Shown here: piece after piece, positions 17,380-31,821 of the stretch
Layout of the letters: each line of letters starts with the position of its first letter
How positions within the stretch are numbered: the stretch's first letter is position 1
Assembly: GCA_000025185.1 (NCBI GenBank)
Contig: CP001848.1
Coordinates: 2,250,001-2,282,000, forward strand
DNA length: 32,000 bases
DNA from: Pirellula staleyi DSM 6068
Lineage (GTDB): Bacteria > Planctomycetota > Planctomycetia > Pirellulales > Pirellulaceae
Direction: 5' to 3'
Notes under the pieces: generated by a model
Seen by the model: only the letters and a program-made list of their open reading frames with translations
Databases searched by the model: none
What the model was told of the DNA's origin: nothing
Translations under genes and position numbers: made by a program

Positions 17380-19590
17380 CTAAAGCCCGCGGCTGAGCTG
17401 AAACGTCTTGCTAAACAGACGCCAAAGCCGTCGCGCGATCGTTTCGGAATCAACGCGAATTCGAGCTTTCCCCGTCGCGTAGGGGAGCACACGTAGCGAG
17501 CTCTGCAGCTCGATTCGGACTTGATACTTCGCTTCGCTCGACACTTCGTCGGACTCGAGCAGCGAGTTAGTCATCGCTGATGGTGTCGCACTCTCCGACG
17601 CTTTGGCGATATCGATAATCGTCCCCTCGACGGCGATCGATTCTTCTTGAAACACGATTACCGCCACCGACTGTCCAATGCGCACTTGCTCCAGATCCGA
17701 TTCAGCCAGGACAGCAGTCGCTTCGAGCTTCGTGGGGTCCCCGACTTCGCAAAGCAACGTCCCTTGGTCCAAATAGCTGCCGATGTTCTCGGGGTCGAGT
17801 GGTGTACCGTACCAGGTGGTTAAGGCCAGCTTCGTGACCTCTCGTTTCGCGCGTCCCGGAGCGAGCACGACACCTTCGCGAGGTGAGCGAATCGTGAGGC
17901 GATTGACTAGGTCGCGCAGTTGCTCAGTTCGCTCGCGCATGTCCTGCAGCACTACCGTTTCGGCAGGAATGATGGTCTCCACCGAGTCATCAATCCCGCG
18001 CATCGTCTGCAATGCGTCGAGCTTCTTCTCTTGTGCCCTGGTCTCTGATTCGATCCGTGCAAGATCGAGCGTTAGCGCCGAGTTGTCGAGCTTGGCCAAG
18101 ACGTCACCTTGGCCAATAGTGTCGCCAGCCTGCGCCACCGATCGAAGTTGCCCTGCGCTCGTGACATAGATTGGTGTGGCACCTTGAGGAATCACCAGCA
18201 GTGGCGCATCGACGCGCGATGGGAGCGGCACCATCACGATGGCTCCCACGGCGCCGCAGGCGAAGATCGTCGAGAAAGCGAATCGTAAAAAACTAAATTG
18301 ACGTTGCATGATCGACTCGCGCCATTGCCGAAAAAAGGTCTGAACGACAGGGAGCAGCGTGGCACCCAGTGCCGCGAAGAGCAACAGCCCCACCATCGCC
18401 TCGATCTTCCACGCTCGTCCAAGTGCCGAGAGTATCCAGTATGCCGAGACGAGGACAAAAATGCGATAAATCCCCGAGAATAACGCGTAAAATGCCAGCG
18501 GGGCATCTCGCTCGGTACTCGCCAGAAGAGCTGGAGGAGGCGTAAGTCCAAAGACCTGTTGGGCGAAGATGGTTGCAAAAGCACGCCGCGATCGCTGCTC
18601 GAGATTCGGGATTTCGAGCCAGTCGGAAAGGAGGTAGTAGCCGTCGTAGCGGAGCAAGGGATTGGCATTCACGACCAAAGTTCCGATGGAGCAAATCACC
18701 ATCGCCTGGAGTGATAGAGAGTTAATCACCCCCGGCAGACTGGCCCACCACAGCAAACCAAACAGCGCTGCCAGCACGAGCTCCACATACATCCCCGCTG
18801 CTGCCACAGCCATGCGCTTCCAGCGACTCGCCAGGAGCCAGCTGTCCGACACGTTGCAGTAAAGGCAAGGGGTCAACAGCAATAGTTGCACACCCATCTC
18901 CGGAACGCGTGCGCCCATGCGCATGCAGACAAACGCATGCGCAAGTTCGTGCAAGGTTTTCACGAAGATCAGCACAACCGGCAGGAGCAGCAGATGCTGC
19001 GGCGCTAAATTGGTCGCGGAACTTTCGAGCCTTGCAATGATCGTTGGAAGCTGTGTTAACGCAAGGATGAACACCACGGCGACCAGCGTCAGCATGATCG
19101 CCGCGCATAGCGGCGAGAAGAACCAACTCACTAGCGGCAGCCAGGGGCGCAGCCAAGTCTCGGCATCGATCCCACGAAGCCGGGGCGACAGGAGCGCACT
19201 GGCAAGGCGCGAGATAGGCCACGCCTCATGCTTTTGGCGCTTGGTGGCCAGCACTGCTCCCTGACCAGGGAGTGTTCCCAAGACGAGTCCTTGTTTGTGC
19301 AATTGTTCGAGAAATGCCGTCAGCTGTTTAACCGACAGGATGCTCGGCGCAAATCGATGCGCAAATGCAGCCCGCAGATCGTCGATACTGATTTCGCCAT
19401 CCAGATGCTCGAAGACAAACTGTTCATGCCCCCGAAAATAGAAATAACGCAGCGCGATGGGATCGTGCACGATCAGCCACGACTCACCACCAAACCATTG
19501 TTGACGGCGCACTAAATCGTGGCGCGCGACCAATGGAATCGGTCGCTCGGTGGTGCTGGTGATCGGTTTGGAAGTTTGCGGCTTAGCCAC
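17380..19590 (-). CDS. Tri-domain fusion: PqqD/RRE-like N-terminal domain, polytopic M50 (site-2-protease family) zinc metalloprotease, and C-terminal HlyD-type periplasmic adaptor
   Basis: GTG start lies 2 nt after the upstream stop. Residues ~35-105 (19276-19488) read WLIVHDPIALRYFYFRGHEQFVFEHLDGEISIDDLRAAFAHRF...VKQLTAFLEQLHKQGLV, a PqqD-like pattern. HELAH lies at 18937-18951 in a TM segment (...VLIFVKTLHELAHAFVCMRMG). The second M50 motif is NANPLLRYDGYYLLSD (residues 308-323). There are about 7-8 hydrophobic helices between residues 150 and 455. Residues ~455-736 carry the lipoyl-like, coiled-coil (ARIESETRAQEKKLDALQ) and beta-barrel pattern of membrane fusion proteins. Confidence 0.88.
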   Translation of the reverse strand: MAKPQTSKPITSTTERPIPLVARHDLVRRQQWFGGESWLIVHDPIALRYFYFRGHEQFVFEHLDGEISIDDLRAAFAHRFAPSILSVKQLTAFLEQLHKQGLVLGTLPGQGAVLATKRQKHEAWPISRLASALLSPRLRGIDAETWLRPWLPLVSWFFSPLCAAIMLTLVAVVFILALTQLPTIIARLESSATNLAPQHLLLLPVVLIFVKTLHELAHAFVCMRMGARVPEMGVQLLLLTPCLYCNVSDSWLLASRWKRMAVAAAGMYVELVLAALFGLLWWASLPGVINSLSLQAMVICSIGTLVVNANPLLRYDGYYLLSDWLEIPNLEQRSRRAFATIFAQQVFGLTPPPALLASTERDAPLAFYALFSGIYRIFVLVSAYWILSALGRAWKIEAMVGLLLFAALGATLLPVVQTFFRQWRESIMQRQFSFLRFAFSTIFACGAVGAIVMVPLPSRVDAPLLVIPQGATPIYVTSAGQLRSVAQAGDTIGQGDVLAKLDNSALTLDLARIESETRAQEKKLDALQTMRGIDDSVETIIPAETVVLQDMRERTEQLRDLVNRLTIRSPREGVVLAPGRAKREVTKLALTTWYGTPLDPENIGSYLDQGTLLCEVGDPTKLEATAVLAESDLEQVRIGQSVAVIVFQEESIAVEGTIIDIAKASESATPSAMTNSLLESDEVSSEAKYQVRIELQSSLRVLPYATGKARIRVDSETIARRLWRLFSKTFQLSRGL

Positions 19591-19592
19591 GA

Positions 19593-20528
19593 TCAGGGAA
19601 CTCGAATCGTCATCTGCCCACGATAACCGGGGCGAAGCATTTGGTCGGCATTGTCGATCTCAGCAATCACGCGGACTTCATTGCTCACGGGATTCACTTC
19701 GGGACTAACGAAGACCAAAACACCTTGAAATTGCCGCTTCGGAAGCTCTGTGGCCAGAATGTCAAATTGCACGGGAGTGCCAGCTTTCAAAGCTACGGCA
19801 GCTTTCGCGGGAATGAATCCTTCACAGCGGAGCTTGTCGAGTTGCACGAGTCGAATCAGCTTCTTGCCAGGCTCGATCCACTCCCCTTCGCGACCAGTAA
19901 TGTCGGCAACCACGCCGCTGAAGGGAGCAATCGCCCGTCGCCGGTCGATGGTCCGTTTCGCGAGATCGACCTCTGCTTGTTTGAGCTTGATGTTGAGCAC
20001 GGCCACCGATTGTTCGTGCTTTGCTTTTTCCATGGCGAGTCGCGCCTCATCAGCCGCCAATTGCAATCGATCGAGTTCTTGCTGCGAGATTACTTTTTGG
20101 ATCGCAGCAACACTGGTCTGGCCACGTTTCAGCTCCTCTTCGGCTACGCGGAGCGTCTTCTCTGCCAGACGATAGGCCACATCGGTGTCGGCTGTTCGTG
20201 TCGCGATTTCGAGTTCAATTTCGGCTCGGGTGAGCATCAGCACCACTTCGCGATCGTCGAGGGTCGCCAGGATATCTCCCTTCTCGACTTTCATCCCCTC
20301 CTTCACATTCACGGCCGAAAGGATTCCCGCTTCAGCAGCGGGAACATCCACCTCGCGTACCAGACGCAGTAACCCCGAGACGACCACCGGTTCTGCGGCG
20401 CGTGCAGAGGGGGACTCGAAGGAGAGCGAGAGGAGGCCGATGCCAAGGAATACGAGAAGAGGGGACGCTACTTTTTGTTTCGACATGAGATGTCTCTTCC
20501 TGCGAATTGCTCGGCCAACCTGGGGCAT
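19593..20528 (-). CDS. HlyD-family membrane fusion protein (periplasmic adaptor subunit)
   Basis: N-terminal anchor or signal KQKVASPLLVFLGIGLLSLSF. Lipoyl-type segments GILSAVNVKEGMKVEKGDILATLDD and APFSGVVADI. Long coiled coil (EIELEIATR...LKQAEVDLAKR). An alternative ATG at 20486 (MSKQK...) is preceded by AGGAAGAG and may be the true start. Confidence 0.9.
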   Translation of the reverse strand: MPQVGRAIRRKRHLMSKQKVASPLLVFLGIGLLSLSFESPSARAAEPVVVSGLLRLVREVDVPAAEAGILSAVNVKEGMKVEKGDILATLDDREVVLMLTRAEIELEIATRTADTDVAYRLAEKTLRVAEEELKRGQTSVAAIQKVISQQELDRLQLAADEARLAMEKAKHEQSVAVLNIKLKQAEVDLAKRTIDRRRAIAPFSGVVADITGREGEWIEPGKKLIRLVQLDKLRCEGFIPAKAAVALKAGTPVQFDILATELPKRQFQGVLVFVSPEVNPVSNEVRVIAEIDNADQMLRPGYRGQMTIRVP

Positions 20529-20625
20529 CGAATCGTTGCGTGAGCAAGCTCGTCACTCGTGCGTGTCGTGAGTTATCCTGGCGGAAATTGACGGAATCGC
20601 CGCTCCAAAACAAGGTGGTCGCGCT

Positions 20626-22605
20626 CTAGTAGACACACCACGACCGAACAAGCGTAATGAGCTCGTGGAACCAAACATACCCGATGGGGTAGGTGCCACA
20701 CTCGATTTTAGCGCGCACTGTTGCGCCGGGGCGTAGCTCTGGGAGCTTTCCGCTGATCGAGCCAGCGGTGATATGCACAATGCTTTGATTTTGTTCGTCG
20801 CGCGACGTTGCGGGGGCGATTGCTTCGACCACAGCCCGGTGCACCTGGGTGATATCGGTGCCGAGCACAAACGAGACTGCGACCGGTTGTTTGGAATGGG
20901 CCTGAGCGCGAAGCACATACCCCGCGCGACGATCGGGAAGGTCGAGTTCGAGTTGCCAGGGAGATGTGAGGTCGGCGATCGTCATCAGCAGTTCACCGCG
21001 CTTCACGGGACGATCGGCCAGCTGACGTTCGAGGTCGAACGTAACGATCGAGCCGCTGATGGGACTGTTGATTTTGAGTTGCGCGACCTCGGCTTTCAGG
21101 ATCTCCTCTTCGGCCTCGAGACCGATACTAATTTCCTTTAGCTGCTCGATTCTCGCGGCGAGTTCGCTTTTTGAACCAGGGCCCGAGGCAGGGAGATCAT
21201 CCCCTAGTAGTTGTGCCTGCGCCGAGTCGAGGTCTTCTTTCGTTTTTCGTCGTTTACCACCCACTTCTGACAAGCGGATCGCTAGCGTGGGGCTATCGAG
21301 TTCTGCTAACGGCTCCCCTTTACGCACCGACATCCCTTCGCGGCCTGCGAGTCGAATCACCACGCCATCAGCTGGCGCGAAGACATGCTGACGGACCTGC
21401 GGAACAAGCTCGCCACTCGCTTCGACTGTCAGCTCGGCTGGTATCAGCAACAGCGCGGCTGTGATGGCACCCAGGACGATTCCCAGCAAGGCCAATTGTG
21501 CGAGACGTTGTCGCGCATGATCACGCACCTTGCGACGGAGTCGTCCGAGCCATTTGAAGGGGAGCGATTCGTACTCGACCGCTCCTTCAACCGCACCAGC
21601 AACCGTTGCGGCGATGAGCGCTGCTCGTCGGCGATCGTCGATGGATGGCAGGCGCGAGAACCATTCGCAGGCCAAAATTCCGATCGGCCTTGAGGATTCA
21701 TCGTCGGTCGTAAGCGGGAGCATGGCGAGCGAACGAGCATGGGTTTCGTCGACGAGCGCTTCAGCCGCTTCTTCGACCTGCGGCGCGACATCGTCGTTTT
21801 TGTTGTCGCCGTACCAAAGTGTGTCTCCCGACCGGAGCACAAGCCCAGCCAGCTGTTCGAGATGTCTTAATGATTGGCTACGACGGTCGAACGAAGCGGC
21901 GCCGCTGATGGCGATCACTTCAGTGCGATTTCCTCGCGCTAGTAGCAGCGTCATCCGGTCGCAGTGAGCAAGTGCGGGAGCATCGCCGACAATGGTGCTC
22001 GCGACATTCTCGAGAATCAGCGATTCGTGCACACGCCTCGAAAGATCGAGGAGCTGTGCGGCATCGAGTTCTCGCGTCTTTAGCAAACGAAGTTGGCGGT
22101 TCTTTTCGTAGTCCTCGGCGATTTCGCAACCGGTGGTGACGAGCCGGAAATAGCCATCGACCAGTGCTGGCCGCGACTCCGGACGCTGCAAGATTTCGAT
22201 CACTCCGAGCGGTTCGTCGAGTACCACCAGCGGCGCGACGATCAGCAGCCACGGTGTATCGTTCACTTGATTTCGCGTGCTGCTTCCAGGTGGAACGAGC
22301 TGCGGTTCGTGGGAACGCAGGACGTCGACGATGAGCGCGTCGTGCTGGGCTCGCAGCTGCGAGTCGCCAGCGAGTGTTTGTTCGAGTTGCATCTCGAACT
22401 GGCACAGGAGTTGGCCTTCACGCACGGTCCAGACAGCACCACCTACAGCGGCCAGCACACCGATTAACTGTGACAGGAGCTTAGGGTAGAAGGTTTCAGG
22501 TGCAACATCCTCGCGCGCGAGTTGCGTGAGTCCATCGAGCACTTCTTCGATCTCGAGCCAAGCGGCGTCGGAAGGCTCGTGCGGATCGAGGTTGCCGGTC
22601 GTCAT
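20626..22605 (-). CDS. Two cytoplasmic GAF-like domains, one TM helix and a HlyD-type periplasmic adaptor domain
   Basis: The track ORF starts at a TTG (22698). I prefer the ATG at 22605 (MTTGNLDPHEPSD...). GAF-like regions span track residues ~45-200 and ~210-375 (21574-22566), e.g. ...GAVWTVREGQLLCQFE...PLVVLDEPLGVIEILQ and ...CDRMTLLLARGNRTEVIAISG...LAMLPLTTDDESSRPIGILACEW. TM helix LAQLALLGIVLGAITAALLLIP at 21439-21504. The adaptor region includes DGVVIRLAGREGMSVRKGEPLAELD, a short coiled coil and INSPISGSIV. Confidence 0.82.
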   Translation of the reverse strand: MTTGNLDPHEPSDAAWLEIEEVLDGLTQLAREDVAPETFYPKLLSQLIGVLAAVGGAVWTVREGQLLCQFEMQLEQTLAGDSQLRAQHDALIVDVLRSHEPQLVPPGSSTRNQVNDTPWLLIVAPLVVLDEPLGVIEILQRPESRPALVDGYFRLVTTGCEIAEDYEKNRQLRLLKTRELDAAQLLDLSRRVHESLILENVASTIVGDAPALAHCDRMTLLLARGNRTEVIAISGAASFDRRSQSLRHLEQLAGLVLRSGDTLWYGDNKNDDVAPQVEEAAEALVDETHARSLAMLPLTTDDESSRPIGILACEWFSRLPSIDDRRRAALIAATVAGAVEGAVEYESLPFKWLGRLRRKVRDHARQRLAQLALLGIVLGAITAALLLIPAELTVEASGELVPQVRQHVFAPADGVVIRLAGREGMSVRKGEPLAELDSPTLAIRLSEVGGKRRKTKEDLDSAQAQLLGDDLPASGPGSKSELAARIEQLKEISIGLEAEEEILKAEVAQLKINSPISGSIVTFDLERQLADRPVKRGELLMTIADLTSPWQLELDLPDRRAGYVLRAQAHSKQPVAVSFVLGTDITQVHRAVVEAIAPATSRDEQNQSIVHITAGSISGKLPELRPGATVRAKIECGTYPIGYVWFHELITLVRSWCVY

Positions 22606-22737
22606 GGTTAGCGGCAATTTCGATCGAGGTGATGTGCGGGAAGAATCACGGGCCACGAGGAGCCAAGACTGTGCTCGTGGCAAGCTCAATCGTAGCAAGA
22701 ATCGCTCGAATGGAGCAAGGAATAGATCGAAAGCAAA

Positions 22738-25700
22738 CTACGGTGCTGGCGGCAGGTACTGAAACGCCGGTGCTGTCTGCTGCATCGCTGGGGCTGGCAT
22801 CGGAGGTCCTGAGACCCCCGAAGTTCCTGGGGCAAACCAAGTTTGTTCGATCAGTCGCGACGAAGGGCCTTGCTGCATCGACGTGGGAATCGGCTGAGCC
22901 GTCGGTCCCTGCATGCTCGACATGTTCAGCGGTGCTGCTGAGCTCGGACGTCGCAAGCCTTCGAGCGTCGGCTGACGAGGTGCGGCGGGTGGCGCCGCTG
23001 GCTGCTGATACTGGGGTTGCTGATACTGCGGCTGTACCGGTGCATACTGCGTCGGGGGATTCTGTTGCTGGTATTGTGGCTGCGCTGGAACGTTGTAGTT
23101 GGGCTGCATCGAAGGCAGCGGCAACGAGGGCTCGTTGGTCGTAAATCCAAACTGCGGCTGAACGGTGGCCTGAGGTGGTGCAGCCGTTTGTGGCTGGACA
23201 GGGGGAGCCGTGGTGAAAGGACGAACAGCCCCTTGTGGCAACTGCTGCTGCATCGACGGTTGATACTGGGGTTGCTGATACTGTTCGTAGCCGCCCGGCG
23301 GAAGCGAATTGAACTGCGATTGGTTCGACGGTGGAGCCAGCGGCAACGACGAATTGATCGCGGGAGTAGACGGCGTCGCAGGAGCTGGCGGCAGCAGATT
23401 CATCGAGGCGGCCGAACTTGCGCGACGTTGTCCTTCGAGTTGCGGAACGCGAGGCTGTGCGACCTGTGGCCGTGGACCTTGCGATGGCATCGTTTCGTAT
23501 GGAACATTGTTTGGCGAATTGCTCGAGGCGCTGAACTGCGGAGCGACTGCTGCGTTCGATGGTCGACGTCGCGACGAAACACTCGCTGGAGGCTGCTGTC
23601 CAGTCGGCATAGCTGCGGCACTCGTAGACCGCGAACCTGGGAGTGGCAACGAGCTTTCGCTTTCGAGCTGCTGTGGCATAACAGGTTGCTGCACCACCGG
23701 CTGTTGGAGGTTTGGTTGCTGGAAGCTCGGTTGCTGTACGCGTGGCTGCTGCGGCGCTGCGATGGTCGGCGGACTCACAGCAGCAGGAGCATTGCGAGGA
23801 GGCATCAGGTTCATCGATGCGGCACCGCTCGGACGACGGACGTTCCCCATAGCAGGCTGCCTTGCGACACCACCATCGGGCGAAGCAAAGGTAGGTGGAA
23901 CATGGTTGTTGAGCGAGTTCTCATAGGCACGATCTCCCGCTGGAATCGAATCTGCGGGCAGCTCCAGCGAAGGTCCAACCGGCTCGGGCCGGCGAGCTGG
24001 TGTGGGAGTCGTGGCAACTGGTCGCTGCGGTGCTGCGGGTGCAAGCTTCATCGATGCGGCGCCACTCGGACGACGGACATTCCCGATCGCAGGTGCACGA
24101 CCAGGAAGCGATGGCGCTGTGCCTGGCGTGGCCTGCGGATATTCCGTGAACTCAGGATTGTTTTCAGGGAAGTTGAACTCGGGTTCACCAGCTGCACTGG
24201 GGCGTGGCGAACGAGCTGGCGTGGGCGATCCGGCGGTGTTGTTGCTGGCGGCACGTGGCGATGGTGGAAGCAAATTCATCACCGCTGCACCACTTGGGCG
24301 GCGGATGCTTCCTGCATTAGCCGTCCGTGGCTGCTCGGTCATAGTTGGTGCCGATGCTGGCGTTTTGGCAGGCGTAGGCTCGGCATACAGCTTCGAGGGA
24401 TCGGCATAGACAGGATTGCCTACCATGTCCGGACCTTCGGGATCGGTGTTCACAATGTTCGGCAACGTTCCGCCGGGTAGTGGTAGACTCTCTTGCGGTG
24501 TCATCACTGTCTGCGGAACATACTCAGGCTCGGCCGGAACGATCGTCTCTTCGGCGACATCAGCCGGTGGGGTCGGTGGACCGAACATCGGTGGCGCTGC
24601 CAAATCTTGCGGCGATGCTGCATCGTTGGTTGGCGATGGCTCTAGCTCGGCAAAATCGGGCGACGGAGTGGGAATCGATGGATCGCTGGGGGCTGTTTCT
24701 GTCGGTTGTGGCGGACGCATTTCGGTAGGCGACAAATCGGCAGGTGGCAAGCTTTCCGCCATATGCACGTGGCTGTACTCGAGCAGCGTTCCCTTCTCGT
24801 AGTGGATGTTCTTGATTGCAATCGTATGTTCAACCAAAGCGCGATAGTACTGAATGTCGGCATCGGCCAAGCGACGTTCGGCATCCAGCAACTGATCGAG
24901 ATTGACGGGCAGGTCTTTCGAGAGCTTGTCGCGCAGGATATCAACTTGGCGCTGGGCAGCAGAGCGACGATTGAAGCTGGTGTTCATTACTTGATACGAG
25001 CGAGCCAGATCGGCCATCGCATTGCTCAAATCGTGAACCACCTGACGTTCCTGTTCGCAAAGCACGGCTTTCTCGCGAGCCAGCAACAGCTGAGCATTTC
25101 GGACGGCAGCATAGCCACGTCGGAAACCAATTGGCATGGTCAGTTCGGCCCCCACTTGCCATTCGGCGAAATCGCCAATGAACAAGTTGCGAATCGAACT
25201 GTTGCCAAAGTAGCCCTGTGGATCTTGCGGATCGAACAGCAGGTCTTCATCACCCAGCAGTCCATGCCCCAGACCACGCCAGCGATAGCGGGTGGTGGCA
25301 TCGAGTCGTGGTAGCAAAAAGTTGCGCGACGCAATCAGCTCGAGCTCGCGACGTTTGATCGCTAGTCGCTGACGATGCAGTTCTGGACGACGACAAATGG
25401 CATCATTGGTGACGCCACTCCAGTCGAACGAAATGCGAGCGAGCGTGGGCTCGTCACCAGGGCGAATCATGCGACCATCGGTGATCGGCAAACCGCAGGC
25501 CAGACGCAAACGACGTTCGCAAACCAGCACACCACCAATGCCGCGGAAACTTCCACCAGCCGTGCCGTTGTTCGTGGTGGTGCTATCTTGCAAACGGCCA
25601 CTCAAGGCATTTTGTACATCTTCTTCAAAACGATAATACTGCTCGCGAGCTTGCGCTTCACGTTCGGCTGTTCCACCCGGCTGACCACCTTGATACATAA

Positions 25701-26595
25701 CATTGATGCGTTGCCACGTCTCGAGAGCCGTGTTGCGAGCAGTGATCTTGGCGTCGAGATCGCGATAGGCAAAGTACAAATCCCAGTAGGCGTTTTCGAC
25801 GTTGCTCACGAGGTCGCGAAGACCAATTTCGAAGTCGGTCACACTGATATCGGTGTTCACGCGGGCGATAACCACACCGCTATAAACACCTGGAACCGAG
25901 TTGGGTCCAGCAATGCGATTGAAGCGTGTACCAGCACCTTGCAGCAGCGGATGACGAGCTTCGACTTCCAGCAGCGAGTCCCAGGTGCTCGGAAAGCGGT
26001 TGAACGAGGCGTTATTGAAGTCGTAGGTGGTGGTGCCACGCAAAATCAGCTGCGTACCACTGGTGGTGACTTTCGATAGCTGCGACTGCGCGACGAGCAA
26101 ATCTTGCTGGAAGAACCGAGTACCACCGGACGCCACGAAGTTGTTCACCATCCGGTCGTTCTTTTCGGCCGATACGCTAGCCCCGATCGTGGCATCAAAC
26201 GCTGCCAAAGCCGCTTCCATACCGATGCGAGGATCGGAAGAAACAACCGCTGGCCCAAGAATCGTGCGTGCGTTTTCCGGTGAGCGAATGACCGTTCCAC
26301 CAAGATCGCGAAGGATGGCCGACTGTGTGACGGCGAGCTGAACAGCCTCGTCGAGCGACATGTTCCACCACTCTTGAGGCACCGCGTTCTCGTTGATCGT
26401 GCGGGGGGCTTCGCTGGTGGCATACTGCATGCTCGGATTGATCTCGACTTCGGGATAGTCGTACCGGGCAGCGATCTCTTTATAATGTGCTAGCTCAGGG
26501 TCATTCTTACGGTCCGGCCCGACCAAATTGCAGCCGACACTCATCGCGACGAGCGCGATAATGGCAGCGACAGGGGCATAGACAGTACGAAACAT
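22738..26595 (-). CDS. TolC/OMF-family outer-membrane channel (residues ~75-610) with a possible lipoprotein signal and a 675-aa Pro/Gln/Ala-rich C-terminal extension
   Basis: N-terminus MFRTVYAPVAAIIALVAMSVGC. OEP-type halves: MSLDEAVQLAVTQSAILRDLGG...VENAYWDLYFAYRDLDAKITARNTALETWQRI and PELHRQRLAIKRRELELIASRNFLLPRLDATTRYRWRG...LDQLLDAERRLADADIQYYRALVEHTIAIKNIHYEKGTLLE. The remainder (22741-24765) is low-complexity. Confidence 0.9.
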   Translation of the reverse strand: MFRTVYAPVAAIIALVAMSVGCNLVGPDRKNDPELAHYKEIAARYDYPEVEINPSMQYATSEAPRTINENAVPQEWWNMSLDEAVQLAVTQSAILRDLGGTVIRSPENARTILGPAVVSSDPRIGMEAALAAFDATIGASVSAEKNDRMVNNFVASGGTRFFQQDLLVAQSQLSKVTTSGTQLILRGTTTYDFNNASFNRFPSTWDSLLEVEARHPLLQGAGTRFNRIAGPNSVPGVYSGVVIARVNTDISVTDFEIGLRDLVSNVENAYWDLYFAYRDLDAKITARNTALETWQRINVMYQGGQPGGTAEREAQAREQYYRFEEDVQNALSGRLQDSTTTNNGTAGGSFRGIGGVLVCERRLRLACGLPITDGRMIRPGDEPTLARISFDWSGVTNDAICRRPELHRQRLAIKRRELELIASRNFLLPRLDATTRYRWRGLGHGLLGDEDLLFDPQDPQGYFGNSSIRNLFIGDFAEWQVGAELTMPIGFRRGYAAVRNAQLLLAREKAVLCEQERQVVHDLSNAMADLARSYQVMNTSFNRRSAAQRQVDILRDKLSKDLPVNLDQLLDAERRLADADIQYYRALVEHTIAIKNIHYEKGTLLEYSHVHMAESLPPADLSPTEMRPPQPTETAPSDPSIPTPSPDFAELEPSPTNDAASPQDLAAPPMFGPPTPPADVAEETIVPAEPEYVPQTVMTPQESLPLPGGTLPNIVNTDPEGPDMVGNPVYADPSKLYAEPTPAKTPASAPTMTEQPRTANAGSIRRPSGAAVMNLLPPSPRAASNNTAGSPTPARSPRPSAAGEPEFNFPENNPEFTEYPQATPGTAPSLPGRAPAIGNVRRPSGAASMKLAPAAPQRPVATTPTPARRPEPVGPSLELPADSIPAGDRAYENSLNNHVPPTFASPDGGVARQPAMGNVRRPSGAASMNLMPPRNAPAAVSPPTIAAPQQPRVQQPSFQQPNLQQPVVQQPVMPQQLESESSLPLPGSRSTSAAAMPTGQQPPASVSSRRRPSNAAVAPQFSASSNSPNNVPYETMPSQGPRPQVAQPRVPQLEGQRRASSAASMNLLPPAPATPSTPAINSSLPLAPPSNQSQFNSLPPGGYEQYQQPQYQPSMQQQLPQGAVRPFTTAPPVQPQTAAPPQATVQPQFGFTTNEPSLPLPSMQPNYNVPAQPQYQQQNPPTQYAPVQPQYQQPQYQQPAAPPAAPRQPTLEGLRRPSSAAPLNMSSMQGPTAQPIPTSMQQGPSSRLIEQTWFAPGTSGVSGPPMPAPAMQQTAPAFQYLPPAP
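22921..24303 (-). repeat. Six dispersed copies of an RRPSGAASMNLLPP-type short linear motif in the OMF tail
   Basis: RRPSGAAVMNLLPP at 24262-24303. RRPSGAASMKLAP at 24037-24075. RRPSGAASMNLMPP at 23797-23838. RRPSNAAV at 23545-23568. RRASSAASMNLLPP at 23386-23427. RRPSSAAPLNM at 22921-22953. Copies 2 and 3 are also near-identical at DNA level; on the plus strand they read catcgatgcggcgccactcggacgacg and catcgatgcggcaccgctcggacgacg. SLPLP(G/S) recurs four times in register with them. Confidence 0.8.
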
Positions 26596-26869: not shown

Positions 26870-28228
26870 GTGAACGAGCCATCGGCGAGGGAGACGTCGG
26901 AGAGCGTTTCCGAGGAGTCGCTAGCAGCTGCCCGTCGACTATTCGACGAAGGGATGGAGCTCGCCGATCGAGGCGACTTGCAGGCTGCCGCCACCTGTTT
27001 GACGAAGGCGGCAGATCTAGCACCTGGCAAGCTGCCGATCCTATTTAACCTGGCTAACTTACGGACAGAGCTCGGGGATCACCAAGCAGCAGCGGCCGCT
27101 TATCACGAGGCGTTCAAGCTCGACCCCAGCGACTTCGACGTCACGCTGGGGCTCGGCAAGGCACTCGCCCAAATCGGCCAAACGCGCGATGCCTTGATGG
27201 TTCTCGAGCGCGCGTCAACGCTCGATCCCACATCGTTTGAAGCCGCCAGCGAACTAGCGCGGGTTCTCGACTCGATCGATAAATTCCGCCTCTCGATTCC
27301 CTGGCACCAAAAGGCACTGGCGATCGATCCTAGCAATGCCCCCCAGCAGTGGGCGTATGCGCGAGCGCTCGCCACCAGCGGCAAACTCGACGATGCTGCT
27401 GTGGCCCTCCGTCGGATGATCGAGCTCGAGCCGAGTTGCAGCGGAGCCTACGAGTTCCTCGGACAAATCTATGCAGCTACCGATCAAAAGCATCTTCTCG
27501 AAGGGCTAGGACAGGAGTGGCTCGCCGCTTGCCCCACTGATCCGACGGCTCAACATCTGGCAGCGTCGTGGTCGACCGACCATCAGCCCAGGCGAGCCAG
27601 CGATGCTTTCGTCCAAGAGGTGTTTGATAAGTTTGCTGCTGAGTTCGATGCGACGCTCGAAAAACTCGAGTACCGGGCACCTCAACTGGTCGCAGCTGCT
27701 GCACAGATGTTGCTCGCGCCAGGTACCTCGAAATTCGCTCGTGTTCTCGATGCCGGATGTGGCACCGGACTCTGTGGGCCGCTCGCACGCCCTTTCTCGG
27801 AGTATCTCGTGGGGGTCGACCTCTCCCGGGGGATGATCGACAAAGCCAAGGAGCGTTTTGTTTACGACGAACTGCAGGTGGCCGAGCTAACCAGCTTTAT
27901 CGAGAAGTCGGAGACTCCCTACGACCTCATACTGTCGGCTGATACGCTCGTTTATTTTGGTGACCTATCCGAAGTGGCTGCAGCGATGTTTGCCAAACTC
28001 GAGAAACACGGGGCAATCGTTGTGACGCTCGAGTCGGCCACCGCTGCCGAGAACTGCGAAACCTACTTGCTCCGGGCTCACGGCCGTTATTGCCACGAGC
28101 GAGGGTATGTCGAGCAGGTTTTGACAGCGGCAGGCTTCACCGAGATCAGCTTTTCCGAAGTTGTTTTGCGGAAGCAGGGGGCCGAGCAAGTGGCTGGCTA
28201 TCTGGTAGTTGCTCGCAAGCAGCCTTAA
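26870..28228 (+). CDS. TPR-repeat-containing class I SAM-dependent methyltransferase (COG4976-like architecture)
   Basis: GTG start. N-terminal TPR-like repeats include GDLQAAATCLTKAADLAPGK, LGDHQAAAAAYHEAFKLDPSD, IGQTRDALMVLERASTLDPTS and SGKLDDAAVALRRMIELEPS. Next comes FVQEVFDKFAAEFDATLEKLEYRAP, then SAM motif I VLDAGCGTGLCG, VGVDLSRGMIDKA and DLILSADTLVYFGDL. Confidence 0.88.
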   Translation: MNEPSARETSESVSEESLAAARRLFDEGMELADRGDLQAAATCLTKAADLAPGKLPILFNLANLRTELGDHQAAAAAYHEAFKLDPSDFDVTLGLGKALAQIGQTRDALMVLERASTLDPTSFEAASELARVLDSIDKFRLSIPWHQKALAIDPSNAPQQWAYARALATSGKLDDAAVALRRMIELEPSCSGAYEFLGQIYAATDQKHLLEGLGQEWLAACPTDPTAQHLAASWSTDHQPRRASDAFVQEVFDKFAAEFDATLEKLEYRAPQLVAAAAQMLLAPGTSKFARVLDAGCGTGLCGPLARPFSEYLVGVDLSRGMIDKAKERFVYDELQVAELTSFIEKSETPYDLILSADTLVYFGDLSEVAAAMFAKLEKHGAIVVTLESATAAENCETYLLRAHGRYCHERGYVEQVLTAAGFTEISFSEVVLRKQGAEQVAGYLVVARKQP

Positions 28229-28375: not shown

Positions 28376-30154
28376 ATGTCGATGAAGTACAGCGTGAATT
28401 TCGGCACGATGGGTCAAACACCTCCCGCACGTTCGGGCAAAGGGGGGGAGGTACTTCGCATTGCTCTGCTGGGGGATTTCTCCGCCGGTGCGAGCCGTGG
28501 CCGTTTGGAAACTGGCGACGACTTGGCCAAACGCAAACCGCTTCGCGTGGATGTCGACAACCTCGATCAAATCATCGCGCGACTCAACATCACCATGCAG
28601 TTGCCCGTTGGTGCCGATGGTGAGTCGGTCGAGGTGAAGATCGGCTCGATGGACGATTTTCATCCCGATCAGCTGTATGACAATGTCGAACTCTTCAGCG
28701 GACTCGCGGGGCTGCGCTCGCGCCTAAAGAACAAATCGACCTTCGCCAAAGCTGCACAAGAAATGCAGAGCTGGGTGAGTAGTGAAAAAATCGATCGCCA
28801 CCTCAGCACCGTTGCGAAGAGCCGCTCGTCGGTGGTGCCTGTCGACGGAAAATTGAGCGACTTTGCCCGCCTCGTGGGGAAGACAACCGCTGATGCAGAG
28901 AAGACCACCTCGATCGATGGGCTGCTGAAGGCAATCATCGGGCCCCTGGTGGTTCCAGCCAAAGATCCCAAAGCCGATGCCTTGGTGGCTGCTGTCGACG
29001 AAGCGATTGGCGAAGCGATGCGGAGTGTGCTGCATCATCCCGATTTTCAAACGCTCGAATCACTGTGGCGTAGCGTCGATCTGCTGACCCGTCGTCTCGA
29101 GACTGGTCCCAACTTGCAGCTGGTGATTTACGACATCAGCGCCGAAGAATTGGCTGCCGATCTCAGCTCGGCCGAATCGCTCGATCAATCGGGGCTCTAT
29201 AAGTTGCTGGTCGAACAACCGACGCTCGATGTTCAGCAAGGTTCGCTCGGCCTGCTGGTAGGCAACTATGTTTTCGAGCAGACACCGCCGCACGCAGAAC
29301 TGCTGGGACGGATCGCCAAGATTGCTGCCTCGGCGCAAGCCCCTTTCATCACCAGCACCAGCCCCGACTGTTTGAAGAAGGTGAAGCCGGAAGAAGTCCA
29401 CCCGCTGATTCAAGAGGCATGGGACGCGCTCAAGGGGTCGCCAGAGGCTGTCTATTTGGCGATCGCTTCACCACGCTTCATGCTCCGCAATCCCTATGGC
29501 GATCGGACCGATTCGATCGATCGCTTTGAGTTCGAAGAGTTCACTCGCCAGAGTGGTCTCAAGGGGATGCTATGGGGCAATCCAGCGATTCTCGCCGGGC
29601 TCTTGTTGGGGCAAACCTTCGAGCGTCAGGGGATGAAGAAGATGAATCTCGGTTCGATCCTTTCGGTCGACGATATGCCGTACTACTTCTACGAAGATCA
29701 GGATGGGGATCAAGTCGCGCTCCCTTGCACCGAGCGCTTGGTGAATGTTGCCACTGCCGAATGGATGGCCAAACAGCGGTTCATTCCGGTGCTTGCCCTG
29801 AAGGGAAAGAACGAAGTGCGGCTCGGTGGATTTCAGTCGCTCAGCGGCAAGCCCGTGGCGGGTCCTTGGGCTCCCGTGACGATCAATTTTGTCACAGGGG
29901 CGGTCACAGCAGCTCCACCTCCGCCGGCACCAGTGGCAGCAGCGCCAGCTCCCGCTGCTGCTCCAACTCCACCTCCGGCCGCCGAAGCCCCAGCTGCTCC
30001 TGCAGAAGATCCTGCTGCTGCAGCCGCCAGTGCCGATGCGGAACTCGACGCCTTGCTCGCAAGTTTGTCGGCTCCCGATCCAGCCCCACCCGCCGCAAGT
30101 GGAGGCGACGACGCCATCGACCCCGAACTTGCCGCGCTACTGGCCGATCTGTAG
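28376..30154 (+). CDS. Fused TssB(VipA)-like and TssC(VipB)-like contractile-sheath-related protein that lacks the C-terminal sheath domain and ends in a Pro/Ala-rich tail
   Basis: Residues 25-118 (28448-28729) read VLRIALLGDFSAG...PLRVDVDNLDQIIARLNITMQL...VEVKIGSMDDFHPDQLYDNVELFSGLAGLRSRL. They parallel VipA LVVGDFKG...VSVDKNNFEAVM...LNFKSLADFAPD...ELKKLIELREAL. Residues ~200-495 (28973-29860) parallel VipB block by block: VLHHPDFQTLESLWRSVDLL with ILHNSQFQAMESAWRGLKLF; SGLYKLL with SGLYKHV; LLVGNYVFEQTPPHAELLGRIAKIAASAQAPFITSTSP with AIIGNYAFTPSTPDMKLLQYMGALGAMAHAPFISSVGP; YLAIASPRFMLRNPYG with YLGLTAPRFLLRVPYD; MLWGNPA with YLWGNTA. The VipA and VipB sequences are recalled from memory. Residues 511-592 are Pro/Ala low complexity. 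Confidence 0.8.
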   Translation: MSMKYSVNFGTMGQTPPARSGKGGEVLRIALLGDFSAGASRGRLETGDDLAKRKPLRVDVDNLDQIIARLNITMQLPVGADGESVEVKIGSMDDFHPDQLYDNVELFSGLAGLRSRLKNKSTFAKAAQEMQSWVSSEKIDRHLSTVAKSRSSVVPVDGKLSDFARLVGKTTADAEKTTSIDGLLKAIIGPLVVPAKDPKADALVAAVDEAIGEAMRSVLHHPDFQTLESLWRSVDLLTRRLETGPNLQLVIYDISAEELAADLSSAESLDQSGLYKLLVEQPTLDVQQGSLGLLVGNYVFEQTPPHAELLGRIAKIAASAQAPFITSTSPDCLKKVKPEEVHPLIQEAWDALKGSPEAVYLAIASPRFMLRNPYGDRTDSIDRFEFEEFTRQSGLKGMLWGNPAILAGLLLGQTFERQGMKKMNLGSILSVDDMPYYFYEDQDGDQVALPCTERLVNVATAEWMAKQRFIPVLALKGKNEVRLGGFQSLSGKPVAGPWAPVTINFVTGAVTAAPPPPAPVAAAPAPAAAPTPPPAAEAPAAPAEDPAAAAASADAELDALLASLSAPDPAPPAASGGDDAIDPELAALLADL

Positions 30155-30285: not shown

Positions 30286-31389
30286 CTATGACTTGGCAGC
30301 GATCGTGAGATGTACGTCGTAGTGCACGCTGCTCCGATCGTGGAGGCGAAGTTTCCAAGGGATCCGATCTTGCTCGGCAGCGATCGAGAGTCCTGCAATC
30401 GATTGGGGATGCATCCCGGGAGTTAAGAGTTCTCGGAGCATTGCATCGCTCTGGCCCTCGTTTCGGCTGCGCTGCGAATGCCCGCCGATCCATTGCTCCA
30501 TCGGAGTGACAGCGGCCGACCAGTCGTAGGGTGAAGCGATCATCGCGCAGCCCCCCGGCATCATTGTGCGCGACATCGATTGCAGCAAGGCGAGTGGTGA
30601 ACCGAGCGAGTCGATCACGTTCATCGCAGCTAGACGTGCAAACTGCTGATCGCGAAACGGCAGGTCGGTTGCATCGCAGCACCAAAAATCGACTCGCTCG
30701 TAGTGCTCTTTCGGAACGATGGCGTGGACATAGTCGTACACAATCCCGACACGCCGCAACGGAAATGTGACGCGCTGCTGCGACATCGCTGCGCGGGCGA
30801 GTTGCAGCAGCGGCACGCTCATATCGATGCCGAGCACCAAGTCGTCGCTCCCGGCTTCGTCGAGTTGCCGGGCCATTTCCCAGGTAGCTCGGCCAGGACC
30901 ACATCCCAAATCCATTTGCGGCCCTGTTGGCACAGCTCCTGCGAGCGACATGGCACTGCGAACTAAGCTGGCCAAACTTCCCGCCGTGTCATTCAGGGAT
31001 TCAGCAGGGATGCGACTTGAGGCCGTAATGAATTCTTGGAAGTGATTGTAGCCGTAGCTGCTCTGATGGCTTCGAATCGTGTCGAACACCGATCCCGGCT
31101 GTGAGCAATCCCCGAGCATACTGAGAGTTGAGGGGGCAAAGTCGTTGCGTGCTAAGATCGGTAACAGGCTCGACTCGATGAAAGCGCGAATCGCTGAGAG
31201 CAAAATCGGAATGCCGAGCAGGATGGGGTACTCGCGCTGACAACCGGCAAACGAGCAGAGCAGGGCACCCTCTTCGATTTCGGTGGCGGTCCCTTTTTCG
31301 ATCCGGCCGAGCTGGAGTCGTGATTCTAAACCAGCAGCTCGGCATACGGGACAGATCGGAGCTAGTCGTTCGAAGTGCGCGAGTTTCAC
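30286..31389 (-). CDS. Class I SAM-dependent methyltransferase with an N-terminal Trm112-like zinc-ribbon domain
   Basis: GTG start preceded by AGGAAAG. N-terminus reads APICPVCRAAGLESRLQL...LLCSFAGCQREYPILLGIPILL, a CxxC...CxxC plus YPIxxGIPxLL pattern of Trm112-type ribbons. SAM motif I MDLGCGPGRATWEMA, then LGIDMS and FARLAAMNVIDSLGSP. Confidence 0.82.
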   Translation of the reverse strand: MKLAHFERLAPICPVCRAAGLESRLQLGRIEKGTATEIEEGALLCSFAGCQREYPILLGIPILLSAIRAFIESSLLPILARNDFAPSTLSMLGDCSQPGSVFDTIRSHQSSYGYNHFQEFITASSRIPAESLNDTAGSLASLVRSAMSLAGAVPTGPQMDLGCGPGRATWEMARQLDEAGSDDLVLGIDMSVPLLQLARAAMSQQRVTFPLRRVGIVYDYVHAIVPKEHYERVDFWCCDATDLPFRDQQFARLAAMNVIDSLGSPLALLQSMSRTMMPGGCAMIASPYDWSAAVTPMEQWIGGHSQRSRNEGQSDAMLRELLTPGMHPQSIAGLSIAAEQDRIPWKLRLHDRSSVHYDVHLTIAAKS

Positions 31390-31446
31390 GCGTGGGCTTT
31401 CCTGGGGCCGATCGTGATCGGCGGAGGGGAGGCTTGCCGCAGCAAC

Positions 31447-31821
31447 TTAGCCCCCAATAAGGACCGTGGGGCAACCGGGAGGAAGAACCTTGCCAACCGG
31501 GCTCGGGATCGGCGCGACACACGTGGCATGTGCCGTCATGTCGTTCACTCGTGCGGCTGGAAGCCCGGCAATCAGCACCGTGCCAGAGCCCTTGGCTATC
31601 ATCCCCGGACCTGCGGGAACACAACCGGGGAGCATGCAGGGCATCGATATATCGGTGACCCGCGCAGCTGGCAAGTTCCCAATTAATACGGTCGGCGCTC
31701 CCGTGACAATCGCCAGCGGAAGGGCAGGGTGGGGGACCGGAACAATCGGATGGATCGGCGCATGACAGTGCGGAGCATCCTGCTTGATCAGGTCGGTCAT
31801 CCGTGCTGCTGCCATTCCCAT
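31447..31821 (-). CDS. PAAR-domain protein (T6SS or contractile-injection spike-tip family), stand-alone at 124 aa
   Basis: Three PAAR-type motifs: MAAARMTD, NLPAARVTD and GLPAARVND. Each lies in the usual context of G(S/A)xTVLIxGxPAARxxD, and the protein ends ...CPTVLIGG. A strong SD lies upstream. Confidence 0.85.
   Translation of the reverse strand: MGMAAARMTDLIKQDAPHCHAPIHPIVPVPHPALPLAIVTGAPTVLIGNLPAARVTDISMPCMLPGCVPAGPGMIAKGSGTVLIAGLPAARVNDMTAHATCVAPIPSPVGKVLPPGCPTVLIGG

Follow-up and report, generated by a model that had tools for sequence, protein, structure and literature searches.

A TssB-TssC fusion protein lacking the inner sheath domain: a candidate sheath-derived accessory protein of H1-like T6SSs

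The assembly, length control and recycling of the T6SS sheath are customarily accounted for by 13 core proteins together with a few accessory factors. TssE, like gp25 of phage T4, is a non-polymerising sheath initiator that matches one part of a protomer and sits at the edge of the lattice. The C-terminal domain of TssC, VipB_2, is labelled ‘gpW/gp25-like’ by Pfam. The canonical sheath is made of two chains, TssB and TssC (VipA and VipB; PDB 5N8N, 3J9G, 5URW), and among the three domains of its protomer it is domain 1 that faces the tube and carries the strand-exchange ‘handshake’ (PMC5807055). The N-terminal segment of TssB, QKFIARNRAPRVQIEYDVE, is the beta1 donor strand, which connects protomers inside one ring (PMC5807055) and binds TagJ in the H1 class (TagJ-binding residues from PMC4239648). 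The ‘EFASLL’ motif class of the TssC N-terminal helix is defined in the same work, as is the ClpV1 class of ClpV, whose groove is blocked and which is marked by Arg6 and the Asp of ‘ISDLS’ (PMC4239648). TssA, one of the cap/initiator proteins of the ImpA_N family, binds the sheath end through its Nt1 domain (PMC11106082).

The closest described protein is TssCL, the ‘long TssC’ of roseobacter T6SS1 clusters, as presented in the accessible part of an in-silico study (Suria et al. 2022, Front Microbiol; PMC9515649). Its C-terminal ~600 aa are homologous to a protein encoded in the window, by which we mean the whole stretch of DNA analysed, 32,000 nucleotides from the planctomycete Pirellula staleyi DSM 6068; the homology takes in a diverged VipA, a VipB N-terminal domain, and an acidic tail with MDPELAALLxDL at its end. 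The window protein is 44% identical to two proteins, that of Leisingera sp. ANG-Vp (L087), over residues 9-521, and that of Ruegeria conchae (L072), over residues 9-545; both have the terminal motif in common with it. Separate tssB and tssC genes coexist with TssCL, as far as the accessible text goes, and the same is seen in relatives of the window protein. However, TssCL alone begins with an additional TssB, complete and near-canonical, and an acidic repeat linker of 500-1000 aa; it comprises two VipA regions and one VipB in more than 1000 aa, whereas the window protein comprises one of each in 592 aa. Moreover, TssCL is reported, in that part of the paper, only from Alphaproteobacteria and only inside T6SS clusters, whereas the window gene is planctomycetal and lies at an orphan locus beside a PAAR gene.

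The accessible part of the same paper is silent on the absence of VipB_2, on the conserved terminal motif and on the fusions with TssA, all reported below (PMC9515649). Our literature search found neither a planctomycete description nor a functional study of the family, which is also missing from a 2026 review of T6SS accessory factors. Nevertheless, a preliminary description of this DNA overstated the novelty of the architecture, since the long form is the roseobacter TssCL, already known from 2022 (in the accessible part of PMC9515649), and since the family extends across several phyla; to judge from its sequence, the window protein would be a shorter relative of TssCL without the N-terminal TssB and the repeat linker. 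TssW (PMC12607579), considered as a name for the family, proved to be an unrelated outer-membrane protein.

The gene occupies positions 28376-30154 of the plus strand. Its start is an ATG, although the alternative start at M3 (28382) is equally consistent with the homologues, and a scan for promoters and terminators around the gene returned no signal exceeding the shuffled expectation. According to the open reading frame, Pfam, NCBIfam, an AF2 model and Foldseek, the 592-aa product is a TssB'-TssC' fusion without the C-terminal domain, followed by a disordered tail. The TssB/VipA-like region (residues 28-131; 28457-28768, plus strand) matches PF05591, T6SS_VipA, with E 8.9e-12 and 45.5 bits against a cut-off of 24; it is also detected by tblastn, and in BLASTP is 32% identical to canonical planctomycete TssB over 79 aa. 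The region resembling the N-terminal domain of TssC/VipB (residues 201-489; 28976-29842, plus strand) matches PF05943 with E 2.4e-48 over profile positions 1-300 of 301, is 32% identical to TssC residues 69-370 in BLASTP, and has profile matches to the PDB entries 5n8n_B and 5urw. The NCBIfam models of the complete canonical proteins, on the other hand, score below their cut-offs: TIGR03358 (TssB) gives 41.6 bits versus 97.25, over positions 31-135 of 160, and TIGR03355 (TssC) gives 164.6 bits versus 271.5, over positions 49-347 of 473 only. The AF2 monomer model has a pLDDT of 80.7, and its best Foldseek matches are TssC1 (5n8n_B; E 5e-17, 30% identity) and TssB (5urw_1A).

Thus, as the preliminary description had claimed, TssB/VipA-like and TssC/VipB-like regions lie in one polypeptide. 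The profile searches and the model show that the folded body (residues ~25-498) is a diverged TssB fused end-to-end to a diverged TssC of which only the first ~375 residues are present, and that it represents domains 2 and 3, the middle and outer layers, of a single sheath protomer from which the inner domain 1 is missing; the TssC-like residues 201-489 correspond to those two layers. The claimed absence of the sheath C-terminal domain also holds. VipB_2 (PF18945, the gpW/gp25-like C-terminal domain with the handshake strands) has no Pfam match in the 592-aa protein. When canonical planctomycete TssC is compared with the window by tblastn, similarity is confined to 28976-29860, equivalent to TssC residues 68-375, and residues 361-496 leave no trace in any frame of the window (the best E, 0.6, is at chance level). 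The folded core ends in a conserved G-P-W (residues 496-498; 29861-29869, plus strand), in which G496 and W498 are invariant, and core-only relatives of ~500 aa terminate at that very position, with ‘LAGRW’ or ‘AGPW’.

The stretch between the VipA and VipB regions, residues 132-200, is, by its alignment, not foreign sequence, and contains a homologue of the TssC N-terminal helix. This is the motif G-K-L-S-D-F-A-R-L-V-G (residues 158-168; 28847-28879, plus strand), present in 201 of 250 family sequences; in alignment A1 its residues K159, L160, S161, D162, F163, A164 and L166 are fully or almost fully invariant. ‘KLSDFARLVG’ aligns with ‘EFESLL/EFASLL’ of canonical TssC, and phmmer pairs TssC ‘aeltEFesLL’ with ‘aKLSDFARLI’. 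Given this homology, the TssC-like part begins at about residue 140-158, and the C-terminal domain is therefore the sole part missing. The canonical QKFIARNRAPRVQIEYDVE segment of TssB is likewise absent, and a different conserved arm, ‘Y-x-x-N-F-G-x-L’, is found instead. In the window protein this arm reads Y-S-V-N-F-G (residues 5-10; 28388-28405, plus strand) and lies where TssB has its beta1 donor strand; its pLDDT in the monomer model is below 40. G10 is invariant in alignment A1, and 171 of 233 family sequences have an ‘FG’ 15-19 residues ahead of the first VipA strand.

After W498 follows a disordered tail rich in alanine and proline (29870-30151, plus strand), recognised by its composition (35 Ala and 20 Pro) and by low pLDDT outside two helices. 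A Pro/Ala tail had been proposed, and is present, although it measures 94 aa rather than 80. The tails of relatives are of comparable length and are Asp/Ser-rich instead of Ala/Pro-rich. The two motifs in the tail lie exactly where the preliminary description placed them. Motif 1, A-E-L-D-A-L-L-A-S-L (30038-30067, plus strand; ELDALLASL at 30041-30067), is an acidic helix of LxxLL type lying inside a helix that AF2 predicts for residues 547-564; in alignment A1, D554, L557, D558, L560, A562 and L564 are conserved at 90% or more, and L561 is invariant. Motif 2, D-P-E-L-A-A-L-L-A-D-L (30119-30151, plus strand; ELAALLADL at 30125-30151), forms the extreme C-terminus, with the stop codon (30152-30154) directly after it.

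Across the family, 253 of 357 sequences define a consensus for motif 2 of D (91%), P (75%), E or D, L (100%), A (83%), A (79%), L (99%), L (99%), any residue, D, E or S, and L (99%), followed by zero to two residues. The terminal motif D-P-E-L-A-A-L-L-x-D-L is near-invariant across phyla, while the linker that precedes it is unconserved; it forms the very end of the protein in 82 of 91 locus ORFs, again across phyla, and the number of motif copies per protein ranges from 1 to 15. Since the motif is constant and the linker drifts, the tail helices appear to behave as short linear motifs, that is, as putative docking helices. A strict search pattern for the motif, applied to the proteins of the window and of 91 loci, matched only within the fusion family, and a looser one added a single further match in that set, ‘IDFDALIGDL’, which 6 of 49 Fha proteins carry in their linker; all six belong to one Acetobacteraceae/Rhodospirillales subclade. 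Confinement of the motif, among neighbouring proteins, to the Fha linker of one subclade tells against the reading we favour below. In an AF2 model of P0178, a natural core-linker-TssA protein, the motifs and linker are disordered (pLDDT ~30, from a shallow alignment of 16 sequences). That model lends no support to docking of the motifs on TssA or on the core in cis; with an alignment of 16 sequences, it is weak evidence.

The preliminary description proposed two partners for these helices: the TPR domain encoded upstream, and an unfoldase, in the manner of ClpV. Docking-like behaviour is borne out by the invariant motif and the drifting linker, but neither partner fares well. The gene for a TPR protein with a SAM methyltransferase (26870-28228, plus strand) stays adjacent only in close relatives (L001 and L002), and most of the 90 loci lack it. 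Docking on ClpV as in V. cholerae is doubtful, since every cluster ClpV has Arg6 and the ‘ISDLS’ Asp. We accordingly set aside docking in a V. cholerae-type groove, the linked ClpVs all being of the blocked-groove ClpV1 class. This class membership, and the existence of core-only relatives that are tail-less and sometimes orphan, also sit awkwardly with the account given below; two such ~500-aa relatives, L010 and L091, are orphan genes whose context offers no clue to a partner.

Relatives are encoded in the genomes of at least 519 species. The genome scan for the family used alignment A1, as the broad alignment A2 had no sufficiently conserved stretch. The fusion architecture occurs in Planctomycetota, Verrucomicrobiota, and Alpha-, Beta- and Gammaproteobacteria; the best 120 homologues all have VipA and VipB only, in ~575-630 aa, and VipB_2 is absent from all of them. 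This recurrence, in hundreds of homologues, places the architecture and both tail motifs beyond chance. T6SS markers lie within 10 kb at 75 of 90 loci, and the usual gene order is clpV-[fusion gene]-vgrG/fha, with clpV upstream at 24 of 90 loci and vgrG or fha downstream at 35 and 16 of 90, respectively; a gene for a ~410-aa protein often stands ahead of the fusion gene. Full T6SS clusters contain the gene in L004, L005, L009 and L011; in L004 and L011 it lies between tssA and tssB. An H1-like T6SS cluster with one tssB and one tssC gene surrounds the orthologues in L004, L005 and L011, and likewise the gene at many proteobacterial loci.

Wherever the flank is long enough, separate canonical tssB and full-length tssC genes coexist with the fusion gene in relatives: the TssC C-terminal domain is found in 13 of 13 loci whose flank extends to tssC, and TagJ in each of the 17 loci whose sequence takes in its region. 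Thus, in relatives, the fusion gene is additional to the canonical pair and not a substitute for it. The window protein shares with canonical TssB and TssC the fold of domains 2 and 3, the signature motifs DDFHPD, HHPDFQ-LE-WR and PRF-LR-PYG, and, with H1-class TssC, the ‘EFASLL’-type N-terminal helix. Whereas the canonical sheath consists of two chains with domain 1, however, the window protein is one chain without domain 1, to which a disordered, motif-bearing tail is added. The idea of a novel minimal sheath subunit finds no support, given the coexistence of the canonical genes in relatives, and the second suggestion of the preliminary description, a non-polymerising sheath-derived protein, fits the complete clusters of relatives.

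We favour, with some reservation, the reading that the family consists of sheath-derived accessory proteins of the ClpV1/TagJ-class T6SS (P. aeruginosa H1-like), acting as mimics of a sheath subunit. Because domain 1 is absent, the fusion protein would not propagate the sheath lattice. It may dock on the real TssBC sheath, on the sheath-binding TssA, or on both, possibly by way of its sheath-like surfaces, the conserved N-terminal arm and the retained TssC N-terminal helix. Relatives whose core is covalently joined to a full TssB or to TssA provide a form of Rosetta-stone evidence: full TssB, acidic linker and core are found at 16 of 91 loci and in about 11 representative clusters, and core, linker and TssA in P0178, P0201, P0213, P0226, P0239 and P0244, the last of which occupies the tssA slot directly upstream of tssB and tssC. 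The flexible tail would display two acidic LxxLL-type helices and so recruit a second, probably oligomeric, T6SS factor, candidates being TagJ/ClpV, TssA and Fha; the net role could be a tuning of sheath assembly, stability or recycling. TssA, linked to the core by these natural fusions, offers an analogy, in that both proteins would work at the sheath while forming no part of its lattice; yet the window protein has no ImpA_N domain, no ring-forming C-terminal domain and no sequence relationship to TssA. TssE offers another, a conceptual one: it is the counterpart of domain 1, and the window protein of the complementary domains 2 and 3.

A more specific proposal is a tentative one, and in our judgement rather doubtful: that the family is a phylum-spanning extra component of the ClpV1/TagJ class which caps, seeds or stabilises the lattice of a growing or a resting sheath together with TssA and TssB (its fusion partners in some planctomycetes and in roseobacters, respectively), while its C-terminal helix recruits TagJ/ClpV1 or Fha condensates in trans. 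If so, D-P-E-L-A-A-L-L-x-D-L would compensate for a TssC without the LLDEII ClpV-binding helix. Simple capping of an end by the N-terminal arm is not obviously possible geometrically, since the TssB N-terminal strand joins protomers of one ring (PMC5807055).

We think it unlikely that the protein is a true structural subunit that co-polymerises with the TssBC sheath, either within it or on it (as a decoration of its outside, say), and so modifies it. In favour of this idea, the fold is strongly conserved, and so are the TssB'-TssC' core motifs that also occur in the canonical proteins. Moreover, the roseobacter forms contain a complete TssB that is near-identical to that of their cluster; through it they could become part of the lattice, with the core exposed on the surface. 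The TssA-fused and tail-only forms, however, have no obvious means of lattice entry. In a variant of this idea, domain 1 is supplied in trans, for example by the gp25-like TssE, and Pfam indeed describes the missing VipB_2 as gpW/gp25-like, the fold of TssE. Against both versions, domain 1, with its acceptor strands and C-terminal donor strand, is absent in every member of the family, which argues against the window protein as a sheath-former. Furthermore, H1-like systems without the fusion gene, such as that of PAO1, function normally according to the accessible part of PMC9515649.

Distinctly improbable, in our view, is an adaptor for loading spikes or effectors. Its sheath-like body would then be incidental, with the tail helices serving as docking sites for VgrG, PAAR or a cargo effector. 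The most frequent downstream neighbour is vgrG, but the position between clpV and vgrG says little, because these two genes are adjacent anyway in PAO1-type clusters. In Planctomycetota, orphan modules often combine the gene with PAAR, DUF4280, VgrG and a putative effector of ~1790 aa (the window, L002, L007, L012 and L029), which would suit such an adaptor. However, no neighbouring spike or effector protein contains a matching motif, and the fusions of the family are with TssB and TssA, never with VgrG, PAAR or adaptor domains.

In the window itself the fusion gene lies outside any T6SS cluster, and its only T6SS link nearby is a gene for a PAAR-domain spike tip (31447-31821, minus strand; PF05488, E 1.2e-16). 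Domain searches and synteny identify a SAM methyltransferase with a Trm112-like zinc-ribbon N-terminus (30286-31389, minus strand) that is co-conserved with the PAAR gene, and L002 repeats the arrangement ‘fusion -> <- MTase <- PAAR’, as does L005 within its full T6SS cluster. Exaptation outside the T6SS in the P. staleyi genome, for example to TolC-HlyD-M50 export or to the flanking methyltransferases, would agree with the position outside a cluster and with TolC/HlyD/M50 as upstream neighbour in several Pirellulales loci (the window, L002, L007, L017, L019, L020, L025 and L026). We nonetheless give it very little credence: the sequence, tail motif and PAAR linkage match cluster-embedded orthologues at 55-60% identity. 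In the window, moreover, the TolC block runs on the opposite strand, and most loci lack it. A pseudogene or assembly artefact, that is, a frameshifted tssB-tssC operon without its 3' end, is favoured only by the likeness to a neighbouring pair of tssB and tssC genes. It is practically excluded, as is the frameshift or assembly error near 29860-29910 that the preliminary description considered, by hundreds of independent genomes and metagenomes that show an identical architecture with the same terminal motif, by the lack of any TssC C-terminal coding remnant in any frame, and by an identity to canonical TssB and TssC of only ~30%.

At least 519 species of several phyla thus possess this conserved extra protein of sheath origin. 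Automatic annotation routinely names its members ‘sheath large subunit’, and counts of ‘tssC’ in genome surveys include this non-canonical fusion paralogue. The loss of the polymerisation domain, the fusions with TssB and TssA and the invariant putative docking helix provide experimental handles on the coupling of sheath, TssA and recycling in H1-like systems, and cultured carriers of the family are found in Leisingera, Ruegeria, Roseibium and Ideonella.

The sheath-like ORF (28376-30154, forward strand) encodes 592 aa, in which Pfam finds a T6SS_VipA match at residues 28-131 (E 8.9e-12), the entire VipB N-terminal domain at residues 201-489 (E 2.4e-48), and no match to VipB_2, the C-terminal domain of TssC. 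The preliminary description had read the ORF as a TssB-like region joined to a TssC-like region without the sheath C-terminal domain, and this reading stands. The NCBIfam equivalogs match only partially, TssC with 164.6 bits against a cut-off of 271.5 and TssB with 41.6 against 97.25. By BLASTP, residues 202-489 share 32% identity with residues 69-370 of a canonical planctomycete TssC, and the protein shares 32% identity over 79 aa with a canonical planctomycete TssB. An AlphaFold2 model built from 58 homologues (mean pLDDT 80.7) has a confident core at residues 24-135 and 180-500, while residues 1-23 and the tail are disordered, except for helices at 547-564 and 583-591. When Foldseek compares this model with the PDB, T6SS sheath structures rank first: TssC1 5n8n_B (E 5e-17, 30% identity, 313 columns), VipB, Myxococcus TssC and TssB 5urw_1A; a profile search of PDB sequences concurs.

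Tblastn across the whole window confines canonical TssC similarity to 28976-29860, which corresponds to TssC 68-375. TssC residues 361-496 have no match in any frame of the window (best E 0.6), and thus the missing domain is neither hidden nor frameshifted, an eventuality the preliminary description had raised. At the other end, phmmer alignments between canonical TssC and family members begin at TssC residues 2-20, where the TssC N-terminal 'aeltEFesLL' pairs with 'aKLSDFARLI'; the string K-L-S-D-F-A-R-L-(I/V)-G is nearly invariant and occurs in 201 of 250 sequences of the family. In core-only relatives, similarity to TssB reaches the final TssB residues. The apparent linker at residues 132-200 is therefore no foreign sequence, and the body consists of TssB joined end-to-end with TssC(1-~375).

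In the inner-layer domain 1 of the P. aeruginosa sheath, TssC beta11/beta12 accept strands from neighbouring protomers, namely the TssC C-terminal and TssB N-terminal strands (PMC5807055). On that scheme, the window protein retains the middle layer (domain 2) and the outer helices (domain 3), and lacks domain 1. An N-terminal arm, 'Y-x-x-N-F-G-x-L', is conserved at the place expected for the TssB donor strand (171 of 233 family sequences, with G10 invariant), but its sequence is unlike that of the canonical TssB arm.

A word-indexed search with the window protein returned 1835 proteins, and the best 120 of these all have 569-632 aa and exactly PF05591 plus PF05943; they come mostly from Pirellulales/Planctomycetia metagenome-assembled genomes and are usually annotated 'ImpC' or 'contractile sheath large subunit'. 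Among 1.8 billion representatives, a profile search matched 6138, canonical TssC included; within these, the family takes four architectures: the core plus tail of the window protein; core and tail preceded by a complete TssB of canonical type and a long acidic linker, in which the tail motif occurs up to 15 times; the core followed by an acidic linker and TssA (ImpA_N ... 'HSPIPYL' end); and a core of ~500 aa alone, terminating in 'LAGRW'. In the TssB-fused long forms, the linker consists of dozens of tandem degenerate repeats such as 'DDxLxSLPE', 'SDILSDLADxAP' and 'DDLDALLGDL' (Ruegeria conchae L072 7661-11767; L053, L087, L090 and others), which resemble an amplified TssB C-terminal 'DPxLLxxLA' segment.

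Part of this family has been noticed before. Suria et al. 2022 (PMC9515649) describe in silico a 1684-aa 'TssCL' in Leisingera sp. ANG-M7 and 20 of 28 roseobacter genomes examined, with two VipA and one VipB domains, beside normal tssB and tssC; they also record Tateyamaria clusters with 'two tssC' genes, and view TssCL as restricted to Alphaproteobacteria, with no function assigned. No other paper in the literature searched uses the name, and a 2026 review of T6SS accessory factors lists no such protein. Homology between the window protein and TssCL spans the C-terminal two-thirds of the latter (44% identity, with the terminal motif in common), whose N-terminal TssB and repeat linker the window protein lacks. 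As far as we could find, it is new that the family extends to planctomycetes, Verrucomicrobia and betaproteobacteria, that domain 1 is explicitly absent, that the N-terminal helix of TssC is retained, that the C-terminal motif is shared across phyla, and that the core occurs fused to TssA. The family is a conserved, mis-annotated candidate T6SS component with clear experimental handles.

To place these genes in context, ORFs in 90 loci were labelled by T6SS marker proteins. A T6SS gene lies within 10 kb in 75 of the 90, and a structural core gene is present in 62. Typically the genes run tssB tssC hcp tagJ tssE tssF tssG clpV, the sheath-like gene, vgrG or fha, and then DUF6931, PAAR, fha, tssK, tssL and tssM; in clusters of planctomycete or verrucomicrobial origin it sits between tssA and tssB (L004, L011) or after clpV (L005). 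All 13 loci whose flank extends to tssC encode a separate TssC that has its C-terminal domain, and TagJ occurs in all 17 where its region is visible. Every ClpV of these loci has Arg6 and the 'ISDLS' Asp, which places these proteins in the ClpV1 class as defined in PMC4239648.

The tail after W498 comprises 94 aa (35 Ala, 20 Pro) rather than the 80 first described; its two motifs are confirmed on the forward strand, ELDALLASL at 30041-30067 and ELAALLADL at 30125-30151, directly before the stop codon. Across 58 homologues (about 55% identity), L561, D582, L585, A586 and L589 are invariant, D554, L557, D558, L560, A562, L564, P583, L588 and L592 are at least 90% conserved, and there is no conservation between or before the motifs. 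Across phyla the linker shifts from Ala/Pro-rich to Asp/Ser/Gly-rich while the final 11-13 residues stay constant: D(91%)-P(75%)-E/D-L(100%)-A(83%)-A(79%)-L(99%)-L(99%)-x-D/E/S-L(99%), then 0-2 residues, a consensus present in 253 of 357 distinct sequences and 82 of 91 locus ORFs. Such a pattern typifies short linear docking motifs: here an amphipathic acidic helix of the LxxLL type, flexibly tethered at a free C-terminus and often present in several copies. As leads, it resembles the canonical TssB C-terminal 'LLxDPxLLxxLA' and, more loosely, the LLDEII ClpV-binding helix of the other T6SS class (PMC4239648).

The upstream TPR-methyltransferase, once proposed as the partner of this tail, finds no support in synteny, which rules it out as a general partner. 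No neighbouring protein of the loci carries the motif, save for a resembling 'IDFDALIGDL' that lies in the linker of Fha in a single Acetobacteraceae/Rhodospirillales subclade (6 of 49 Fha proteins: L022, L023, L039, L041, L044, L050). In an AF2 model of a natural core-linker-TssA protein the motifs are disordered, which is weak negative evidence, because the alignment held only 16 sequences.

The window protein, then, is a sheath derivative that lacks the polymerisation/handshake domain; in H1-like T6SS clusters its orthologues occur together with canonical sheath genes; the same core occurs covalently joined to TssB or TssA; and the protein carries a deeply conserved, putative docking motif at its terminus. 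We suggest that it forms no sheath, and would instead be a subunit mimic docking on the TssBC lattice and/or the sheath-binding Nt1 domain of TssA (PMC11106082). Its tail helices may recruit a second, probably oligomeric factor, such as TagJ/ClpV1, TssA or Fha, which is reported to form condensates (PMC12607579), and the net effect would be to modulate sheath assembly, stability or recycling. We lean towards this general mechanism, and hold any specific tail partner with much less assurance. Of the two options raised earlier, a non-polymerising sheath derivative is retained, while a minimal replacement sheath is not, since canonical sheath genes coexist in relatives. A co-polymerising structural subunit, the absent domain 1 possibly being completed in trans by the gp25-like TssE, seems to us unlikely. 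An adaptor that loads VgrG/PAAR or effectors, genes for the former two being frequent neighbours, is slightly less probable again.

In the window itself the sheath-like gene is an orphan: TolC-HlyD-HlyD/GAF-HlyD/M50 (reverse strand) precede the TPR-methyltransferase and the sheath-like gene (both forward), followed by a methyltransferase and PAAR (both reverse; PAAR then methyltransferase, 30286-31821). Exaptation outside T6SS in the Pirellula staleyi genome is very improbable in our estimate; the downstream methyltransferase-PAAR pair recurs in L002, a locus of a close relative, and in the full cluster of L005. Relatives occur in at least 519 genomes (one genome scanned per GTDB species), those listed including Verrucomicrobiia, Acetobacteraceae, Rhodospirillales, Rhodobacterales (Ruegeria conchae, Leisingera, Roseibium, Sulfitobacter) and Burkholderiales (Ideonella alba, Pseudorhodoferax); by sequence the gene represents a family and not an accident, and an artefact or pseudogene is hardly credible.

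Past the PAAR gene, just beyond the 3' end of the window (L001 8514-13895), lies a ~1790-aa protein that recurs in L007, L012 and L029 adjoining VgrG or DUF4280; in these planctomycete loci and L002 it stands beside PAAR, DUF4280 or VgrG and the sheath-like gene. It has no Pfam match above cut-off and a weak caspase-like match below it (E 1.6e-5), and is a candidate T6SS cargo effector. The methyltransferase after PAAR, a spike-tip protein, has a Trm112-like zinc ribbon at its N-terminus and, below cut-off, an OvoA-C-terminal-like methyltransferase domain.

A possible partner is a ~410-aa helical protein that matches nothing in Pfam or NCBIfam and is encoded directly upstream of the sheath-like gene in about 11-12 loci, of Planctomycetota as well as Rhodobacterales (L004 8697-9929; L072 5512-6747; also L051, L056, L069, L070, L078, L087, L088, L090). 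The Ruegeria conchae cluster also has a voltage-gated-channel-like ion-transport gene (PF00520, L072 6763-7668) between clpV and the sheath-like gene.

Elsewhere in the window, a giant ORF of 3272 aa (4769-14587, reverse) has zero Pfam and NCBIfam matches. The TolC-like outer-membrane efflux protein (22738-26595, reverse; 1285 aa) has its OEP domain only at residues ~400-600 and a ~650-aa Pro/Gln-rich C-terminal extension, atypical for OEP, in which a motif like 'RRPSGAASMNLLPP' occurs about six times. Upstream of it are three consecutive HlyD-type adaptor genes (17380-22698, reverse), of which one carries a fused peptidase M50 domain (17380-19590) and another a fused GAF domain (20626-22698). 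A TolC/HlyD/M50 block also adjoins the sheath-like gene in seven other Pirellulales loci (L002, L007, L017, L019, L020, L025, L026).
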